Part shown: positions 5,261-40,405 of the stretch, in pieces
Layout: each line of letters begins with the position of its first letter
Numbering within the stretch: the stretch's first letter is position 1
Assembly: GCA_045546095.1 (NCBI GenBank)
Contig: JAZQCE010000010.1
Span: 5,712-69,711, forward strand
Length of the DNA: 64,000 nt
Direction: 5' to 3'
DNA from: Candidatus Nanosyncoccus sp.
Lineage (GTDB): Bacteria > Patescibacteriota > Saccharimonadia > Saccharimonadales > Saccharimonadaceae
The notes under the pieces: generated by a model
Databases searched by the model: none
Seen by the model: the letters and a program-made list of their open reading frames with translations, nothing else
Told to the model about the DNA's origin: nothing
Program-made: the position numbers and the translations under genes

Positions 5261-6241
5261 TTATTCTATGTTTTCTGGTTTTATATTTGAATTAATTAAC
5301 GTATTCAAATGCTCGCTATGCAACACATCTGCATTATAAATCTCCACTTTTGCGTTATATGTTTCAATTAATCCATTTATTTCATTATACAAAGCCTCTA
5401 AAGATTCTTGCCTAGCCACCAGTTCAGCCCTCTGTCCATTAAAATCTTCCTCTGTCTGGAAGCATCCTGCCACATCCGCGCAACTATTAAAACTCACAAT
5501 ATCAGCATTCAGCTGCCCCGCGAGCAGCTCATACTGAGACGTTTTTTGCTCCACCTCATTGCTAATGCTTTCAAGCTCTAGCGCCAAGGCATCCAGCTCA
5601 GCCTGCAACCGATTAAATACTCCAATATATTTATCGTAATAAGCCACCACTTTATCCTGCTCTCTAAAAATCTCCGCATAGTGTCGCTCCAAGGCCTCAG
5701 GCAAATCAGCTATTTCTGTACCCGCCCGCACGTACAACTCTTCCTTTTTCTCATTATCGTCATAAATATCCAACTCTTCACCCAACGCCGTCTGATGTTC
5801 CACCAATACCTCATTTAAAGCCGTCTCCAGCACCTGTCGCGCACCATCATCCATCCGCGCCCACGCTACATGCAACAGCTCATGCGCAGTAGTCAGCTCT
5901 CGTATCCCATCCAGCTCCTCTGAATCTATATTATACACATAGATGCTCTCCCCATCATAGCACCCCAGCACCGCAGTCTCGGTCACACCATCTCTACAAT
6001 TAGCATTAAACTCCTCCCTCTCGCTGAGTACCGGCTGCGATGCGTTAAACAAAAACACACCCTTATCCGTCAAGTTTAGTTCGCCCCTTATCCTCTCCAT
6101 CTCCGCCGACGGCTGATAGGTCACCCCCCGATAATAATCATAAATCCAATCCCTGTTCGCCGCCACCACGGCTCCACCCACAACCAGTACCGCAATTACT
6201 ACCCACCAAATCCATTTTTTACTCGATCTCCTTCTTTCCAT
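5261..6241 (-). CDS. Membrane-anchored protein with HELLH zincin-like motif and C-terminal coiled coil
   Basis: N-terminal TM, AHELLH motif, heptad-rich C-terminus; TATAAT 6 nt before ATG. Confidence 0.75.
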   Translation of the reverse strand: MERRRSSKKWIWWVVIAVLVVGGAVVAANRDWIYDYYRGVTYQPSAEMERIRGELNLTDKGVFLFNASQPVLSEREEFNANCRDGVTETAVLGCYDGESIYVYNIDSEELDGIRELTTAHELLHVAWARMDDGARQVLETALNEVLVEHQTALGEELDIYDDNEKKEELYVRAGTEIADLPEALERHYAEIFREQDKVVAYYDKYIGVFNRLQAELDALALELESISNEVEQKTSQYELLAGQLNADIVSFNSCADVAGCFQTEEDFNGQRAELVARQESLEALYNEINGLIETYNAKVEIYNADVLHSEHLNTLINSNIKPENIE

Positions 6242-6269
6242 ACCTCCATTATACCAAACTCCCCCATCA

Positions 6270-6320
6270 ATTCTAATTATCCAAATAGTTAAAAAGGCAT
6301 TTCATGAATTATATGAGTAA
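6270..6320 (+). pseudogene. Very short C-terminal remnant of a second PemK-like toxin
   Basis: QIVKKAFHELYE* (6282-6320) parallels YKEIRDAYLKLI* at 1294 and is followed by the same convergent RNA/promoter unit. Confidence 0.4.
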
Positions 6321-6373
6321 AAATGTACCCCCGACTTTTCAGAAGGGGGGATTGCGAGTAACCTCGAATATAT
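6316..6373 (-). ncRNA. Putative two-hairpin small RNA (copy 2)
   Basis: Follows a perfect TTGACA-N17-TATAAT; hairpins CGAG/CTCG (6355-6366) and CCCCC/GGGGG (6328-6350); compensatory change relative to copy 1. Confidence 0.55.
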
Positions 6374-6378
6374 TTCAT

Positions 6379-6407
6379 ATTATATCAAGTAGCAAGCATT
6401 TTGTCAA
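6379..6407 (-). promoter_or_regulatory. Consensus sigma70 promoter TTGACA-N17-TATAAT
   Basis: -35 at 6407-6402, -10 at 6384-6379. Confidence 0.8.
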
Positions 6408-6417
6408 TAGAAAGGAT

Positions 6418-6526
6418 AGGTTGGTTATGAATTTAAAGATAAGAATCTTGAATTTCTAAACCAACCTGTTTCCTTAATCCCGTTCACTATTAAAATCTAT
6501 CTCCCGGAACCAAAATAGAAAACATA
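6418..6526 (+). repeat. Cassette boundary repeat R1 (ychF 5' end copy plus element end; palindromic att-like site)
   Basis: AGGTTGGTTATGAATTTAAAGATaaGAATC matches the ychF start (10402-10431); the whole ~110 bp aligns with 8092-8200; inverted arms AGGTTGGTT / AACCAACCT at 6418-6467. Confidence 0.85.
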
Positions 6527-6566
6527 ACGATTTTTATTGCCAAAACAAATGATTTATAATGGTTTC

Positions 6567-6956
6567 ATGTCAAAACCAAGTTATTCAGTTATAGTCCCAA
6601 AAGAGCTTTACCCAAAACCATCAAATCGAGAAATGACTGCTGCCTATATTTTGATTGATTTCTTTAATTCCGATATAAAATTCGTAATCAGAAGCGATAA
6701 TAAAACGCCAGATTTTTTAATTGATAATAAATACTGGGAATTAAAATCTCCTACGGGTAATGGTAAATATAATTTACAGCATGCACTCAGAAATGCTGCT
6801 AAGCAATCAGAAAACGTTATTATTGATGCTAGATTTTCAAAAATTCATATCAATAAAATAAAAAATGAGCTGAATTACCAATTCAAGCACTCTAAAAATA
6901 TAAAGCATCTGCTTTTAATTGATAAGCAGAAAAATGTAGTTGAAATTTCTAGATGA
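6567..6956 (+). CDS. Small PD-(D/E)XK nuclease resembling the tRNA nuclease CdiA C-terminal domain; candidate toxin
   Basis: KTPDFLIDNKYWELKSPTG...LRNAAKQSENVIIDARF motif; ATG 6567 is 6 nt after TATAAT. Family assignment is from recall and needs an HMM check. Confidence 0.75.
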   Translation: MSKPSYSVIVPKELYPKPSNREMTAAYILIDFFNSDIKFVIRSDNKTPDFLIDNKYWELKSPTGNGKYNLQHALRNAAKQSENVIIDARFSKIHINKIKNELNYQFKHSKNIKHLLLIDKQKNVVEISR

Positions 6957-6968
6957 GTACGATATAAT
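6940..6968 (+). promoter_or_regulatory. sigma70 promoter TTGAAA-N17-TATAAT overlapping the nuclease stop codon
   Basis: -35 at 6940-6945 inside the last codons, -10 at 6963-6968. Confidence 0.75.
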
Positions 6969-6974
6969 AAAGAT

Positions 6975-7029
6975 ATCGAAAGTCCGTCAGGCAACGCTGG
7001 ATTGCGTAGGTTCGGGGCTTTCTTTTTTG
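6975..7029 (+). ncRNA. Putative small hairpin RNA (candidate antitoxin)
   Basis: Stem GAAAGTCCG (6978-6986) / CGGGGCTTTC (7013-7022), inner GCAA/TTGC stem, T-run terminator 7023-7028, own promoter. Confidence 0.55.
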
Positions 7030-7044
7030 TGCTATAATGCAACT

Positions 7045-8061
7045 ATGAAGCAGGCTGAAACCACCGATTATTTCAAAATTTTAAGTCCAGATTCTCCAGA
7101 TTGGCTCAAAGATTATATTAATACTAAAGAACTCCAAACCCAAAAATATATCAGTACTACCTGTGGCACACTTTATACCGATTTATTTAGTAGCGATACC
7201 TTTTATTCCAGCTTGGACCACTCCATTGCGGTTGCACTAATTGTCTGGCATTTTACTCACAATAAAAAACAAACTCTTGCTGGGTTGTTTCATGACATTT
7301 CAACTCCTGCCTTCAAACACTGCGTAGATTTTATGAACGGAGATTATCTAAAACAGGAATCTACAGAAGACTTAACTACCGATTTTATTAAAAAATCTCA
7401 GGATGTAATGGATTTACTTAGAGAAGATGATATCAAAATTGCAGAAATCGACAATTATCATATCTATCCAATCGCCGACAACGACACACCAAAATTATCG
7501 GCAGATAGGCTAGAGTATTCATTATCCAATGCGTTATTCACCTATAAAATGTTAGATTTAGAAGAAATTAGAGAGATATACAACGATATAGAAATCGAGC
7601 GAAACGAATCAGGAGAGTCAGAGCTAGGATTCAAAACTAAATCCATCGCTAGAAAGTTTGTCCAAGTTACTAGCAAAATGTCAGTTATCTACCGCGATGA
7701 TAGAACTAGATTCTCCATGCAATTTATTGCAGATATATTAAAAGGGCTAAAAGAAGGCGGTGAAATAACAATAGAAGAATTATACGATAAAAAAGAATCC
7801 GATGTTATTGAGATAATTGAAAAATCAAAATACAAAGATGCCTGGAACATCTGGAAAAAAGCTAAGAAAATCAATATTTCAAAAACTAAACCCGAGGATG
7901 CTTACTATATTCATCAAAAATCCAAAGTACGATATATCGACCCACTTTGTAACGGTGAACGTATGTCTAAAATTTGCAAAATAGCCAAAAATGCCATAGA
8001 CAAAAACCTTTCCTACGATATGAGTAACTATGTCTATCTAGATTTTAAACTCGAAAAATGA
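7045..8061 (+). CDS. HD-domain phosphohydrolase
   Basis: SSLDHSIAVAL...LAGLFHDISTPAFKHCVD...LSADRLEY motifs; start moved to ATG 7045 after TGCTATAAT. Confidence 0.9.
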   Translation: MKQAETTDYFKILSPDSPDWLKDYINTKELQTQKYISTTCGTLYTDLFSSDTFYSSLDHSIAVALIVWHFTHNKKQTLAGLFHDISTPAFKHCVDFMNGDYLKQESTEDLTTDFIKKSQDVMDLLREDDIKIAEIDNYHIYPIADNDTPKLSADRLEYSLSNALFTYKMLDLEEIREIYNDIEIERNESGESELGFKTKSIARKFVQVTSKMSVIYRDDRTRFSMQFIADILKGLKEGGEITIEELYDKKESDVIEIIEKSKYKDAWNIWKKAKKINISKTKPEDAYYIHQKSKVRYIDPLCNGERMSKICKIAKNAIDKNLSYDMSNYVYLDFKLEK

Positions 8062-8076
8062 TATAATCATATCTAT

Positions 8077-8200
8077 AATAACAGATATCACAGGTTGGTT
8101 ATGAATTTAAAGATCGGAATCTTGAATTTTTAAACCAACCCATTTCTTTTATCCCGTTTTCCACAAAAATCCGCCTGCCAAAGCCAAATTGGAAAAACAT
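8077..8200 (+). repeat. Cassette boundary repeat R2
   Basis: 8077-8121 nearly identical to 10388-10431 (1-nt indel); 8092-8200 aligns with R1; palindrome GGTTGGTT...AACCAACC at 8093-8140. Confidence 0.9.
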
Positions 8201-8211
8201 CCATATTAGAA

Positions 8212-8257
8212 CAAAAAGATAGGACTCACCTATTCCGAGGCAAGTCCTATCTTAATA
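8212..8257 (-). ncRNA. Putative small hairpin RNA downstream of the deleted nuclease
   Basis: Perfect 11-bp stem AAGATAGGACT (8216-8226) / AGTCCTATCTT (8243-8253), T-run on the minus strand, own promoter. Confidence 0.55.
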
Positions 8258-8262
8258 ATCTA

Positions 8263-8291
8263 ATTATACCAAAACTACTTCTTAAAATCAA
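8263..8291 (-). promoter_or_regulatory. sigma70 promoter TTGATT-N17-TATAAT overlapping the stop of the deleted nuclease
   Basis: -35 at 8291-8286, -10 at 8268-8263; same register relative to the stop codon as 6940-6968. Confidence 0.7.
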
Positions 8292-8403
8292 CTATTTTCT
8301 TAGTTTTTGTCACAATCTTTAACCTTTCGGTAAATAACAGAATCGTCTTATATTCGTGTTTCTCTAAAATAACACCATTTGGGATAATTTTACCTTTTTT
8401 CAT
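8275..8403 (-). pseudogene. Internally deleted paralog of the CdiA_C-like nuclease (42 aa)
   Basis: MKKGKIIPNGVILEKHEYKTILLFTE|RLKIVTKTKKIVDFKK*: the N- and C-terminal parts align by eye with the two ends of the 6567-6956 protein; the catalytic PD..ELK core is absent. Confidence 0.6.
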
Positions 8404-8590
8404 GCGAGGCATTATAACTAATCCACTCTACTTTTTCAACCCCCCTACCCACAATATGATCTAATGCAAACATCGAAACTTTTGCGGGACACAGTATGTA
8501 GCGAGCGCGAGGACCGAATATTTACATTTTTATTTTTTAATGTATAATAAGTATGAAAAGTATAACCAGTTATACTTTAAGGAAGCGTGC

Positions 8591-8791
8591 ATGAAAAATA
8601 AATTTGTAGGTATAGCCAAAGTTGGTGAAAAAGGACAAATTGTTATTCCAAAAGAAGCAAGAGAAATGTTTGATATTAAATCTGGTGATTCTATCATCGT
8701 TCTTTGTGATAAACAAAAAGGAATTGCTTTATTGAAAGCAGATGCAATTGAAGATTTATCGGATAAAGTATTTCCTAAGGAAGAAAGATAA
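8591..8791 (+). CDS. AbrB/MazE/SpoVT-family DNA-binding protein
   Basis: AKVGEKGQIVIPKEAREMFDIKSGD signature; start moved to ATG 8591. Confidence 0.9.
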   Translation: MKNKFVGIAKVGEKGQIVIPKEAREMFDIKSGDSIIVLCDKQKGIALLKADAIEDLSDKVFPKEER

Positions 8792-9513
8792 TGATAGCAA
8801 TAGAAACAAAAAATTTAACCAAAAAGTTTAAAGACAAAACAGCAGTAAATGGGGTCGATTTGAGCATCAAACAAGGAGAGCTATTTGCACTATTAGGAAC
8901 AAATGGCGCCGGTAAAACTACAATAATAAAAATTTTATCAGGATTGATATTACCAACATCTGGGAATATTAAAATTGAAAACATGGATATGAAAAAAGAT
9001 GTATTTAAGATAAAAGAAATCTTAAATGTATCACCACAAGAAACTGCTATTGCACCAAATTTAACAGTAAAAGAAAATTTAGAATTTATGGCAGGAGTTT
9101 ATCAAATAAAAGATAAAGAAAGAAAGATTAATGAACTTGTTAAGGAGTTTAAGCTTGATGAAGTTTTAAATAAAAGAGCTAAAACTTTGTCAGGCGGATG
9201 GCAAAGAAAAGTATCAATAGCAATTAGTTTAATAAATGATCCTAAAATACTATTTTTAGATGAACCAACATTAGGATTAGATGTTATTGCTAGAAAAAGG
9301 TTATGGAAAGTGATTGAAGGATTAAAAGGTAAAATTACTATTATTTTAACTACTCATTACATGGAAGAAGCAGAAAGCTTATCTGATAGAATTGGTATCA
9401 TGGCAAAGGGCAACATCGTTGAAGTTGGAACCGCTAAAGAATTAATTAAGAAGACTAAAGCAAAAAACTTTGAAGATGCATTTGTAGCAATCGCAACTGA
9501 AGGTGAGCTATAG
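8791..9513 (+). CDS. ABC transporter ATP-binding protein (ABC-2 type)
   Basis: Walker A GTNGAGKTT, LSGG signature, Walker B ILFLDEPT, TTHYMEE. Confidence 0.95.
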   Translation: MIAIETKNLTKKFKDKTAVNGVDLSIKQGELFALLGTNGAGKTTIIKILSGLILPTSGNIKIENMDMKKDVFKIKEILNVSPQETAIAPNLTVKENLEFMAGVYQIKDKERKINELVKEFKLDEVLNKRAKTLSGGWQRKVSIAISLINDPKILFLDEPTLGLDVIARKRLWKVIEGLKGKITIILTTHYMEEAESLSDRIGIMAKGNIVEVGTAKELIKKTKAKNFEDAFVAIATEGEL

Positions 9514-10244
9514 TGAGAATGTTAAATTTCGCCAAGAGAAACTTTAAAGAATTAATAAGAGATCCTTTAAGTTTAATATTTGAAATCGCTTTGCCATTAT
9601 TTTTATTATTTATATTTCAACAATTTGATATACCAGCAGAAAACTACAAATTAGAAAATTTTACTCCAGGAATTATAGTATTTGGTTTTTCATTTATAAC
9701 TTTATTTACTGCTACTTTAATTGCAAAAGACAGAACATCATCATTTTTAATTAGATTAGGTACATCGCCAATGAAGTCGAGCGATTATATTTTAGGATAC
9801 ATAATATCACTAATTCCAATCATAATAATCCAAAATGTATTATTCTTTTCACTAGCAGTTATTTTGGGACTAAACTTTACTATAAACATATTTTTTACAA
9901 TTATCGTATCTATAATAGTTTCAATATTATTTATTTCATTAGGTATATTAATTGGAAGTTTAGTCAGTGAAAAAGGAACTGGTGGGTTAGGAAGTGTAAT
10001 AGTTCAATTAGTATGTTTTACAAGCGGTATGTATTTTCCAAATGATAAAATTGGAGATGTATTTGGTTTTATATGCAGAATCTTACCATTTGAAAGTTGT
10101 TTAAATATAATAAAAAGTGTATTAAACAATAATCTAAATGCAATATCACTGGAAAATATAATAGTATTTTTAATATATACGATTGGAATTTTGATTTTAT
10201 CAATTATTGTATTCAAAAAGAGAATGATAAGTGACAATAAGTGA
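9513..10244 (+). CDS. ABC-2 type transporter permease
   Basis: Six hydrophobic segments, FTSGMYFP motif, translationally coupled to the ATPase. Confidence 0.9.
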   Translation: MRMLNFAKRNFKELIRDPLSLIFEIALPLFLLFIFQQFDIPAENYKLENFTPGIIVFGFSFITLFTATLIAKDRTSSFLIRLGTSPMKSSDYILGYIISLIPIIIIQNVLFFSLAVILGLNFTINIFFTIIVSIIVSILFISLGILIGSLVSEKGTGGLGSVIVQLVCFTSGMYFPNDKIGDVFGFICRILPFESCLNIIKSVLNNNLNAISLENIIVFLIYTIGILILSIIVFKKRMISDNK

Positions 10245-10387
10245 TTGGAAAGTTTTTCAAAGTATTCTCGAATAATCAAACCAACTCCATCATAACAAAC
10301 TGAACAAATACCCCACCCGCAGTTTGCCTTGCACAAACTTTATCATATCTAATGTTATACACCAAAATATGCTATAATTATACCAGC

Positions 10388-10431
10388 AATAACAGATATA
10401 CAGGTTGGTTATGAATTTAAAGATCGGAATC
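10388..10431 (+). repeat. Cassette boundary repeat R3 (the functional ychF start)
   Basis: AATAACAGATATACAGGTTGGTTATGAATTTAAAGATCGGAATC; diverges from R1/R2 right after GAATC. Confidence 0.9.
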
Positions 10432-11526
10432 GTTGGGTTGCCCAATGTCGGCAAATCCACATTGTTTAATGCTCTCACAAACGCTGGCGCCCTCGCTGCC
10501 AACTATCCTTTTGCTACCATCGAGCCAAACGTCGGCATTGTCCCGGTACCAGATGAGCGGCTAGACATCCTCGCCAAAATGTACGAGACCGACAAAATCG
10601 TCCCAGCTACTGTCGAGTTCGTCGACATTGCTGGCCTCGTCGCAGGCGCCTCAAAAGGCGAGGGGCTCGGCAATAAATTCCTTGCCCACATCCGTGAATG
10701 CCAAGCTATCTGCCATGTGGTCCGCGCCTTCAAAAACGACGACATCCTCCGTGCCGACCAAAAACTCGTCGATGATATTGTAGCGCAAGCCAAGGACGAC
10801 ATAGACATCATTAACTTAGAGCTACAGCTCGCCGACGAAGAAACCAAAGCCAAAATCGCCGCCAAACGCAAAAAAGACCCTGGGGACGAATTCATCCCCT
10901 ACCTCACCGACAAGCCCGTCATCTATATGTTCAATGTAGACGAAAAAGGCCTCACCGACAATGACCTACAACAAAAACTAACAGAAGTCGCAAGAAATGC
11001 GCAGTCGAGGGACATAAAGGCAATACTTGCCGAAGGCAATTTTGCCGCCGAAGGGGCGAAGCGAGGTGATAAAATTTCTAATTTATCACCTCGCGAAGCT
11101 CCCGAGACGTGCATTTCTTGCGACTCAAACTGTATTTTTGTTGATGCCAAACTCGAAGAGGAGATGTCCGGCATGGACCGCAATGAGCGCAAAGAGTTCT
11201 TGGAGAGTTACGGGGTAAAAGAAGATGCACTCGGCGAATTAATCAAGGCCGCCTATGACGTCCTCGGTCTCCAATCCTTCCTCACCGCCGGCAAGAAAGA
11301 ATGCCGCGCCTGGACCATCAAAAAAGGCTCTACAGCACCCCAAGCCGCCGGTACTATCCATACCGATTTTGAACGCGGTTTCATCGCTGCAAATGTCTGT
11401 AAATACGCCGACTTAGCAAGACTCGGCTCCGAGAAAGCCGTCCGCGAGGCCGGCCTCCTCCGCACCGAGGGCAAGACTTACGTCATGCAAGACGGCGACG
11501 TTGTCGAATTCCGTTTCAACGTATAA
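10411..11526 (+). CDS. ychF: Redox-regulated ATPase YchF (with in-frame hairpin insertion)
   Basis: GIVGLPNVGKST, NYPFATIEPN, FVDIAGLV, TGS domain IHTDFERGFI, YVMQDGD. Confidence 0.97.
   Translation: MNLKIGIVGLPNVGKSTLFNALTNAGALAANYPFATIEPNVGIVPVPDERLDILAKMYETDKIVPATVEFVDIAGLVAGASKGEGLGNKFLAHIRECQAICHVVRAFKNDDILRADQKLVDDIVAQAKDDIDIINLELQLADEETKAKIAAKRKKDPGDEFIPYLTDKPVIYMFNVDEKGLTDNDLQQKLTEVARNAQSRDIKAILAEGNFAAEGAKRGDKISNLSPREAPETCISCDSNCIFVDAKLEEEMSGMDRNERKEFLESYGVKEDALGELIKAAYDVLGLQSFLTAGKKECRAWTIKKGSTAPQAAGTIHTDFERGFIAANVCKYADLARLGSEKAVREAGLLRTEGKTYVMQDGDVVEFRFNV
10986..11125. repeat. Hairpin element family C, copy in ychF
   Basis: Arms AGTCGCAAGAAATGC / GCATTTCTTGCGACT; core TCGAGGGACATAAAGGCAA...GCCGAAGGGGCGAAGC shared with 36082 and 40266. 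Confidence 0.85.
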
Positions 11527-11558
11527 TATCTTAGCGTCCAACAGGCAAAACAAGTTGC

Positions 11559-12164
11559 CTATTCCGAATCACTCTTTTCTACCGTTACGTATTTTTCGTT
11601 CACCCAGACCACTCCATCCTGATCCGTCTCAAATCCATCCGCATCCTTTATATAAGCCCCCTCTATTAAATCTTCTGCAAATTCTTCCGCATTAAAACCA
11701 TACCAATCTCCGTTTACCCCATTACTATCATACCGATAAACGGCGCCGTCGTACGCAATATTAATTATACTTTCATCACCACCAGTATCGACAATCACAT
11801 TAGGCGCATCATTTTTACTAGTCACGCGTGGGTCTGTTCGAACATTTGGTCCTCCATGCAAAGTCACAGATTCGACGTTCTCAATCGTCTCAATTCTATC
11901 CTGCGTTCTTTCATTTTCCATAACTTCAGACGTAGAGCAATTAGTTGCGAGTACCGCCCCCGTTATCGCTATCGCCGCAAACGCCGCCATAGCCAGAGTC
12001 TTGGCTTTCTTCGTCATGACTAAGTCAGCTTTTTCTGATTTCTTTACTGCCTCATACCGCCTAGTTCTCCGCTTCTCTATTTCATCAAAATCATCGTCCA
12101 TGTGTTCCCAACCAGTCGCCCGTCCACCATCAAAACCACCGTTCCCTTTCTCAAAATTATTCAT
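11559..12164 (-). CDS. Hypothetical membrane-anchored protein
   Basis: 201-aa ORF with a central TM (LAMAAFAAIAITGAVLA). Confidence 0.7.
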   Translation of the reverse strand: MNNFEKGNGGFDGGRATGWEHMDDDFDEIEKRRTRRYEAVKKSEKADLVMTKKAKTLAMAAFAAIAITGAVLATNCSTSEVMENERTQDRIETIENVESVTLHGGPNVRTDPRVTSKNDAPNVIVDTGGDESIINIAYDGAVYRYDSNGVNGDWYGFNAEEFAEDLIEGAYIKDADGFETDQDGVVWVNEKYVTVEKSDSE

Positions 12165-36081: not shown

Positions 36082-36213
36082 AGTAATTGCTAAAACATAA
36101 CGTCGAGGGACATAAAGACAAAATCTCTGATTTTGTCGCCGAAGGGGCAAAGCTTTTGTGTAAATTTATTATCACATCGCGGAGCTCCCAAGACGTATGT
36201 TTTAGCAATTACT
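36082..36213. repeat. Hairpin element family C, copy upstream of pnp
   Basis: Arms AGTAATTGCTAAAACATA(A)CGTC / GACGTATGTTTTAGCAATTACT; family C core. Confidence 0.85.
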
Positions 36214-40265: not shown

Positions 40266-40405
40266 AAGACTTGCGCAAAATCGTAAAATCGAGGAACATA
40301 AAGGCAAAATCTCAGATTTTGCCGCCGAAGGGGCGAAGCTTTTGTGTAAAATTTCTAATTTACACAAAAGCGAAGCTTCCGAGGTTTACGATTTGCGCAA
40401 GTCTT
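40266..40405. repeat. Hairpin element family C, between the pgi and tRNA-Leu promoters
   Basis: Arms AAGACTTGCGCAAA(A)TCGTAAA / TTTACGATTTGCGCAAGTCTT; family C core. Confidence 0.85.

Follow-up and report, generated by a model that had tools for sequence, protein, structure and literature searches.

Why does the gene of a ribosome-binding ATPase hold a long DNA palindrome within its reading frame, and is the palindrome translated? The question is raised by ychF in a 64,000-nucleotide stretch of Candidatus Nanosyncoccus sp. (assembly GCA_045546095.1, contig JAZQCE010000010.1), called the window here, from a genome of 0.83 Mb that is 98% complete and is labelled G000 in the comparisons. A 140-nt hairpin of a repeat family, family C, is inserted in frame in the G domain of YchF. 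The segment is probably a non-autonomous hairpin DNA repeat, similar to the Rickettsia palindromic elements (RPEs), which is tolerated and translated by its host gene and whose two arms are kept complementary by template switching.

The insertion in YchF

The window protein has the features of the YchF/OLA1 family, a G domain with an NxxE G4 motif and a C-terminal TGS domain. Pfam finds MMR_HSR1 (PF01926) and YchF-GTPase_C (PF06071), and H. influenzae YchF (PDB 1JAL) matches it at E=4e-95. The gene is the sole long open reading frame (ORF) at the element, and an alternative TTG start at 10405 would give 373 aa. The frame is open throughout the hairpin, reading ...KLTEV ARNAQSRDIKAILAEGNFAAEGAKRGDKISNLSPREAPETCISCDS NCIFVDAKLE..., with the NVDE (G4) motif directly upstream of the insert and CIFVDAKLE immediately after it. 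On the alignment with 1JAL, the insert falls between residues 227 and 236 of the H. influenzae protein, in the connection from the helix after G4 to the strand leading to G5; from the known topology of G domains, this end of the strand should be remote from the nucleotide pocket. Tryptic peptides encoded within the insert include DIKAILAEGNFAAEGAK, ISNLSPR and GDKISNLSPR.

An earlier note on this DNA, made from its letters alone, had placed in ychF a family C element of 140 bp, with a 15-bp perfect outer stem and an inner stem, inserted in frame just before FVDAKLE and adding about 45 residues. The element and its stems are exactly as described there, with an inner stem of 13 bp, and the ORF from 10405 or 10411 to 11526 is open through it. 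The length given there is close, the hairpin itself being about 47 codons and the net gain 42. Both the outer stem of 15 nt and the inner stem of 13 nt (11061-11073 / 11082-11094) are 100% complementary. Between the outer stem and a junction of three hairpins (A, B and C) lies a basal helix, TCGAGGGAC / CTCCCGAGAC, with GA bulges. The RNA fold of the 160-nt stretch has an energy of -79.4 kcal/mol; 200 dinucleotide shuffles of it give -38.6 +/- 3.6 (z = -11.5), and not one of them is as stable.

In most YchF genes of the same genus, compared among 41 related genomes, the alignment falls into two blocks with nothing between them and the frame is open over about 329-337 aa. The empty site reads ..KLKDLVKPAEA|IFVNAKLE.., and the empty alleles are mostly 329 aa long. 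Relative to these, the window allele has gained 42 codons, its loop being 63 residues long compared with 21. The ortholog alignment proposed in the earlier note thus bears out an insertion: orthologs without the hairpin are 329 aa long, and a homologous peptide is absent from every YchF ortholog that lacks the hairpin DNA. Apart from the insert, YchF of this genus is short, with 329 aa compared with 363 in E. coli and H. influenzae; its helical (coiled-coil) domain at residues ~150-195 is truncated, and relatives of the same order beyond the genus are about 30 residues longer in this part.

The loop that holds the insert is occupied by several other hairpin families as well, which the earlier note had not foreseen. 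In three sister species (G005, G006 and G015), an insert sits at the same place in YchF and comes from other families, which are also present in G000 in about 25 and 5 copies. A wider census took the 120 best homolog clusters of YchF in the protein collection, with a measurable loop length in 110. Thirty clusters are empty and 19 have a family C insert whose site and frame match those of the window allele; 38 carry the ..EPRNDGRERSGEQK.. family, and four further families account for 10, 7, 6 and 2 clusters. The other 7 have nested or chimeric alleles, show apparent deletion footprints (e.g. ..NEIHGKH|SSQA..) or are untypable. The two flanks are 173 and 130 residues long in 109 of the 110 clusters, and all length variation is confined to the one loop, which has 21 residues when empty and 46-83 when filled. 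At least six hairpin families other than C use this loop in related lineages, and 25-60 extra residues from at least seven unrelated-looking families are found in 80 of the 110 measurable clusters. One allele is nested (P0057, 391 aa), others are composite or chimeric (P0115; P0026, which has the left arm of family C and the core of another family), and apparent deletion footprints are seen in P0079/P0082 (..NEIHGKHSSQA..), P0055, P0032 and P0088.

In a tree of YchF with the insert masked, 14 of 114 branches are supported and the insert types are scattered. The supported branches force at least three state changes for family C, and different families are found on sister alleles; P0039 (family B) is sister to P0004 (family C) with 99% support. 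Since families change between sister alleles, turnover or recombination at the site must be fast relative to the divergence of YchF. In a tree of the cores, 7 of 11 ychF copies, including that of the window, form one group with the polA copy (SH-aLRT 91), and the other four are nearby. At its low resolution, this tree fits a common descent of the ychF copies from a single insertion.

Other insertion sites behave in a similar manner. At the dus, xth and polA sites, other hairpin families are present in sister species, while the aspS site is empty in 24 of 24 relatives examined. These site comparisons rest on loci L032-L034 for YchF and on L140, L141, L072-L074, L232, L238 and L240 for dus, xth and polA. 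Junction boundaries for xth were rejected, the loop being too divergent to place them.

Family C and its paired arms

Family C is a real repeat family, as the earlier note supposed, with about 31 copies in the genome at 70-91% identity by BLAST. The alignment shows a conserved core of 92-104 nt flanked by the inner segment of the outer stem, which is loosely conserved (..TTCGCnAnCAT..). The 6-12 bp at the outer end of this stem, in contrast, differ in every copy and are still complementary, so that each copy has a private stem, a feature that the earlier note did not describe. Over 41 copies the outer stems contain 785 Watson-Crick pairs, 20 G.T pairs, 11 A.C pairs and 37 other mismatches; the G.T and A.C counts are not decisive as an indicator of the folding strand. 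Some outer arms are common to paralogs, namely those of ychF (GTCGCAAGAAATGCG), aspS (GCACAAGTAATGCG) and the copy at C15:3985 (GTCGCAAGG). The long variant of hairpin A is limited to 4 of the 31 paralogs and to the closest ychF allele (L061).

Most copies are intergenic, many of them 12-40 nt from an ORF end. Five of the 31 lie in frame within housekeeping genes: ychF, dus (tRNA-dihydrouridine synthase), aspS, xth and polA. In the first four the element is read in the sense direction and in one frame (..KGKISDFAAEGAxxxDKISNxSxxEASE..), with ..KGKISDFAAEGA..DKISN.. as the common peptide, while the polA copy is antisense. Family C is restricted in its distribution. G000 has 31 copies, G005 has 1 and the 39 other relatives have 0. 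The invariant motif of hairpin B served for a pattern scan of species-representative genomes of GTDB, in which family C is limited to contigs of gut Saccharibacteria, bar one contig of 2345 bp with a single copy (L125, CAYRLC010000208.1) that is binned as 'uncultured Croceicoccus sp.'. Since every other match is to Saccharibacteria, this contig is probably mis-binned. The scan found 44 copies in other species, 16 of them inside ORFs; the metagenomic relatives, found in ruminant guts and in others, are labelled Candidatus Saccharibacteria or Candidatus Nanosyncoccus. The sole copy in G005 (C29:1994-2085) lies within a 443-aa open frame and encodes a peptide resembling the ychF insert.

The two arms of the element change together. 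The DNA of ten further family C alleles of ychF folds like the window copy, even though their outer stems differ (e.g. GTCGCAAGAAATGCG, GGTAGCAGGCTTGCAG, TGTAAAAAACTTACAA and GGTGGCGGGCTTGCAA). When these 11 alleles are aligned, 94.3% of the cells assigned to stems are paired, compared with 84.5% in shuffles and 35-44% in controls with slid pairings. Double changes are found at 21 of 45 pairs, where shuffles give 10.9 +/- 1.8 and slid controls 3-5; two of the pairs with double changes among the orthologs are in hairpin C. Cells changed on both sides number 57, against 3 changed on one side, and G.U intermediates are nearly absent from the co-varying stems.

In several ychF alleles the right arm, ..VKPAT(NC)IFV, is similar to the empty-site sequence ..VKPAEAIFV, and the net gain is the core plus one arm. 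Judged from these sequences, the stem of such alleles seems to be built partly from host codons and their inverted copy. An inverted target duplication, with one arm always the host's own sequence, was rejected as a general rule because dus and aspS contradict it. The gain in dus is exactly the core plus both arms (135 nt), without duplication at the junction, and that in aspS falls about 5 nt short of the core plus both arms. In the window copy, any likeness of the arms to the host loop has been lost.

In 28 of the 31 copies here and 41 of the 44 in other species, the sense strand of family C coincides with the strand that is locally richer in C. Since the sign of the GC skew is constant along whole contigs and 61% of ORFs of at least 250 aa are on the G-rich strand, the skew resembles a replication asymmetry, in which the G-rich strand is presumably the leading strand. 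Relative to neighbouring genes, the intergenic copies are sense, antisense, or between convergent or divergent genes, with no consistent pattern. The orientation of family C therefore appears to track a replication-type strand asymmetry and not transcription, which, together with the near absence of G.U intermediates, speaks against a functional RNA. Coding copies are sense and in one frame in 16 of 16 cases in other species and 4 of 5 here, and their hosts are genes of the C-rich strand; about 8 of 9 independent coding sites are on that strand, compared with 39% expected. Stop codons were considered as the cause of this bias and discarded, the antisense frames being equally open. The C-rich strand is presumably the lagging one, which would place the coding copies head-on with replication.

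Family C may not stand alone. The ..NDGRER.. family also has the basal helix TCGAGG.../...CCGAGA, and this common helix suggests one superfamily with exchangeable apical modules; the motif hints at a recognition or folding module that the members would share. A heterogeneous family with a ..GAGCCCCGTRACGACGGGCGCGAG.. hairpin, found at 22 loci in G000, has a basal helix motif in common with family C (TTCGAGGAGCAT ... GTTCCGAGAA in the former, TCGAGGGACAT ... GCTCCCGAGA in the latter). Several intergenic copies of family C (e.g. C12:4817, C27:18291, C21:57287, C3:54336 and C19:2119) are followed within about 10-25 nt by a TATAAT-like hexamer; such copies either tend to sit just upstream of promoters or contribute to promoters.

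The features of the locus are collected in Table 1, with further copies of the family. Upstream of the ychF start, a low-GC island (6000-10300; GC 0.28-0.36 compared with ~0.46 elsewhere) ends just before the gene and contains ABC-transporter genes at 8791-10244.

Table 1. Positions of ychF, of the parts of its hairpin insert and of other family C copies (window coordinates unless a G000 contig is given)
Feature	Position	Strand	Description	Source
ychF (ribosome-binding ATPase YchF), host gene	10411..11526	+	371 aa from ATG 10411	ORF list
Family C palindromic element, whole hairpin	10986..11125	+	140 nt; residues ~192-239 of the 371-aa protein	
Outer stem, left arm	10986..11000	+	copy-specific; AGTCGCAAGAAATGC; encodes ..VARNA..	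inverted-repeat search
Outer stem, right arm	11111..11125	+	GCATTTCTTGCGACT; encodes ..CISCD..	inverted-repeat search
Conserved family C core	11005..11108	+	104 nt; three hairpins inside the basal helix	alignment of 31 copies
Hairpin A, long variant	11019..11046	+	extra 7-8 nt at the tip relative to most copies	
Hairpin B	11047..11057	+	GCCGAAGGGGC; most invariant motif of the family; encodes AEGA	31-copy alignment
Hairpin C	11061..11094	+	13-bp perfect stem GCGAGGTGATAAA / TTTATCACCTCGC; 8-nt loop	
Second family C copy in the window	36102..36196	+	C10:41813-41907; upstream of the polynucleotide phosphorylase gene	
Third family C copy in the window	40289..40383	+	C10:46000-46094; intergenic, 22 nt from an ORF end	
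Coding copy in dus, G000	C15:24401-24498			
Coding copy in xth, G000	C3:51020-51121			
Coding copy in polA, G000	C24:6331-6438			

Fate of the insert and origin of its arms

The arrangement of the coding copies suggests that the ribosome reads through the ychF insert and that YchF tolerates it as a poorly ordered excursion on its surface. No coding copy of family C contains a stop codon or shifts the frame, and the net gains are whole codons in ychF (126 nt), aspS (132 nt) and dus (135 nt). In the ychF genes of G000 and L061, an indel of +7 at the tip of hairpin A is paired with one of -1 in the left arm; the first ~20 nt of these cores are read in another frame (SRDIKAILAEGNF vs SEHKGKISDF), and the usual frame is restored before AAEGA. 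Since such a frame-restoring pair would be unneeded under excision or bypass, it favours read-through. An AlphaFold model made with 80 diverse metagenomic YchF sequences in the alignment has a mean predicted local distance difference test (pLDDT) score of 84, with 44-60 in the insert and 89-96 in its flanks, while a shallow alignment of near-identical Saccharibacteria sequences gave a pLDDT of 44. In the former model, the helix of the host at 184-195 extends as far as residue 208, and the CIFV strand is at 241-244; the model matches the YchF structures 8KIE (E=1e-33, TM 0.74), 1JAL and 2DBY. The insert is thus predicted as a disordered loop on a confidently predicted host fold, which is what came of the structure prediction proposed in the earlier note. 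That note had offered two readings. The first, a tolerated RPE-like peptide in a surface loop, is supported by the empty orthologs, the kept frame and the low-confidence insert of the model, while the second, an RNA segment removed or bypassed during expression, is unsupported.

If the element were removed from the mRNA or skipped by the ribosome, whether by intron-like excision, by an RNase and a ligase or by a bypass of the T4 gene 60 type, YchF would be made without 42-47 residues. The hairpin is indeed very stable, its structure is conserved with co-variation, and it is a discrete module whose removal leaves the frame intact. Nevertheless, a scan of positions 10000-12000 against Rfam 15 gives 0 matches at E<=1, and 140 nt is far below the size of group I or group II introns. 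The signature of a T4 gene 60-type bypass is absent from the hairpin, there being neither a stop codon following the take-off codon nor a matched landing codon. Stop-free coding copies, frame-restoring indels, an orientation that follows replication and the scarcity of G.U intermediates all point the same way, and removal or bypass is very improbable.

Several observations weigh against read-through and template switching as the explanation. The consensus element is open in four of its six frames, so the openness of the coding copies (p ~0.02) is by itself weak evidence, and the argument from the frame is partly circular, since the alleles were found as full-length proteins. An mRNA hairpin of -79 kcal/mol could hinder translation or attract RNase III. 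Because the masked YchF tree is poorly resolved and the insert types are scattered, some of the ychF copies taken as orthologous may have been inserted independently or acquired by recombination, and the evidence that the arms co-vary in place would then be weaker. Template switching itself is deduced from the sequences.

The insert might also have been co-opted, its peptide or its mRNA hairpin giving YchF a useful property, such as a partner-binding loop or control of expression, for which the host is selected. About 19 diverged YchF clusters keep a family C insert with a fairly constant peptide, ..HKGKISDFAAEGAKRGDKISNLSPREASE.., and the frame is kept in all cases. However, the same peptide occurs in unrelated enzymes (dus, aspS, xth and others), very close YchF alleles have unrelated families or an empty site, as in the sisters P0039 and P0004, the G000 core starts in another frame so that the peptide itself is not conserved, and the insert is predicted to be disordered. 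The constancy of the peptide can be explained by the constraint on DNA pairing, and co-option kept by selection on the host is quite unlikely.

A third possibility is a classical miniature inverted-repeat transposable element (MITE), or an element of the repetitive extragenic palindromic (REP) type, moved in trans by a dedicated transposase of the DDE or the Y1 HUH/RAYT kind, in which case the co-varying arms would reflect nothing more than different source copies. A multi-copy family confined to one lineage suggests a burst, the strand bias is like that of the single-strand transposition of IS200/IS605 and REP elements, and the arms that ychF, aspS and C15:3985 have in common would be expected. 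Against this, G000 and 24 of 25 genomes of the genus lack Y1_Tnp (PF01797), the one transposase family searched for, with 6 control genomes positive. Flanking direct repeats are 0-2 nt long, the chance level, in the 9 copies with an ungapped stem end, copies with a conserved 1-nt bulge not being informative for target-site duplication, and the termini differ between copies. With neither a Y1/RAYT gene nor a target-site duplication, and with variable termini, family C is therefore a member of neither the REP/RAYT nor the classical MITE group, and mobilisation of this kind is unlikely.

A tolerated and translated hairpin repeat, maintained as DNA, is therefore preferred. Template switching at imperfect inverted repeats is a replication error that homogenises the arms and can extend them (PMC7202029, PMC8604942, PMC8794818). 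A copy of family C, a repeat of gut and rumen Saccharibacteria, has been inserted in the short loop between helix and strand in the G domain of YchF, adding 42 codons; it would be selfish or neutral DNA, able to persist only at sites that frame and fold permit. Each copy consists of the conserved three-hairpin core and a private outer stem, and the element would be kept as a DNA palindrome, neither as a peptide nor as an RNA. Most likely, one arm serves as the template for the other when replication switches templates at the inverted repeats, so that both change jointly; such a process would yield perfect private stems, simultaneous changes in two arms and a link to the replication strand. Spread and turnover would be linked to that strand as well and would not require a transposase from this genome. 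The repeated use of loops such as that of YchF could mean that inserts are retained where a loop is permissive, or that hairpins already present attract new ones.

A bolder and more tentative extension is that gut Saccharibacteria harbour a transposase-less superfamily of hairpins with the TCGAGG.../...CCGAGA basal helix. Its strand-specific copying, coupled to replication, would home to hairpins or hairpin-prone loops and rewrite permissive loops, with arms rebuilt by template switching. Under such a scheme, the helix-strand loop of YchF would have been rewritten repeatedly by insertion, nesting, core swap and deletion.

Relation to known repeats and significance

The Rickettsia palindromic elements, RPE-1 to RPE-10, were reportedly described by Ogata et al. 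in 2000. According to a later summary, these are palindromic repeats of about 150 bp found in frame in many metabolic genes, where they encode a conserved peptide at places compatible with the fold (PMC10969869). Family C has much in common with them: palindromic repeats of about 100-150 bp, many of which interrupt unrelated housekeeping genes without breaking the frame; a preference for one reading frame, which yields a recurrent peptide at fold-compatible places; and a host-dependent bacterial host with a small genome and no known transposase. It differs in belonging to another phylum (Saccharibacteria/Patescibacteria), the likeness being one of description. It also differs in its private outer stems with joint changes of the arms, in an orientation tied to a replication-type strand asymmetry and in the use of one protein loop by several families with nested, chimeric and footprint alleles. 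Family C would thus be an analogue of the RPEs, and is not claimed as a member; its private co-varying stems, its orientation on one replication strand and the reuse of a loop by many families go beyond the description of the RPEs.

Other systems are similar in part. Elements of the REP/BIME/REPIN type are also short multi-copy hairpin repeats with an orientation bias, in which the DNA-level hairpin is the functional unit. REPs, however, are extragenic and accompanied by a RAYT gene, with a stem-loop of 20-40 nt, whereas 5 of 31 family C copies here and 16 of 44 elsewhere are within ORFs, Y1 is absent and the core forms a junction of three hairpins about 100 nt long. Bacterial MITEs (Correia/NEMIS, ERIC, BOX and RUP) resemble family C as non-autonomous elements of about 100-200 bp with inverted ends and occasional in-frame fusions; in MITEs, the terminal inverted repeats are conserved and, like the target-site duplications, correspond to those of a parent insertion sequence, while family C has copy-specific termini, no duplication in 9 copies and no known parent element. 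Quasipalindrome template-switch mutagenesis shares with family C the perfectly complementary arms, the two-sided changes made in one step and the stems that extend into the flanks, but it is a general mutational mechanism and not an element family, and the arrival of the core at new loci is left unexplained by it. T4 gene 60 is alike in having a structured non-host segment within an ORF; the ychF segment, in contrast, is open and in frame, without a take-off stop or matched take-off and landing codons. Palindromic or MITE-like repeats within genes of Saccharibacteria or Patescibacteria were not found described in the literature consulted.

For annotation, the locus is a warning against taking such inserts for assembly errors or for new domains. 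The scarcity of one-sided changes in the stems makes the family a natural test case for concerted evolution of the arms by template switching, as opposed to stepwise compensatory change. If a dedicated mobility mechanism exists, it is one that has not been described, and the hairpin superfamily with a common basal helix, if real, would mean that bacteria have a so far undescribed way of moving DNA and of reshaping protein loops. Few proteins of the genus are as conserved as YchF, with its identity of about 90%, and yet a single five-residue loop takes large inserts; the census of this loop is a natural map of the tolerance of a universal ATPase to large insertions. Selfish DNA within protein genes, known from Rickettsia, would thereby be extended to the candidate phyla radiation.

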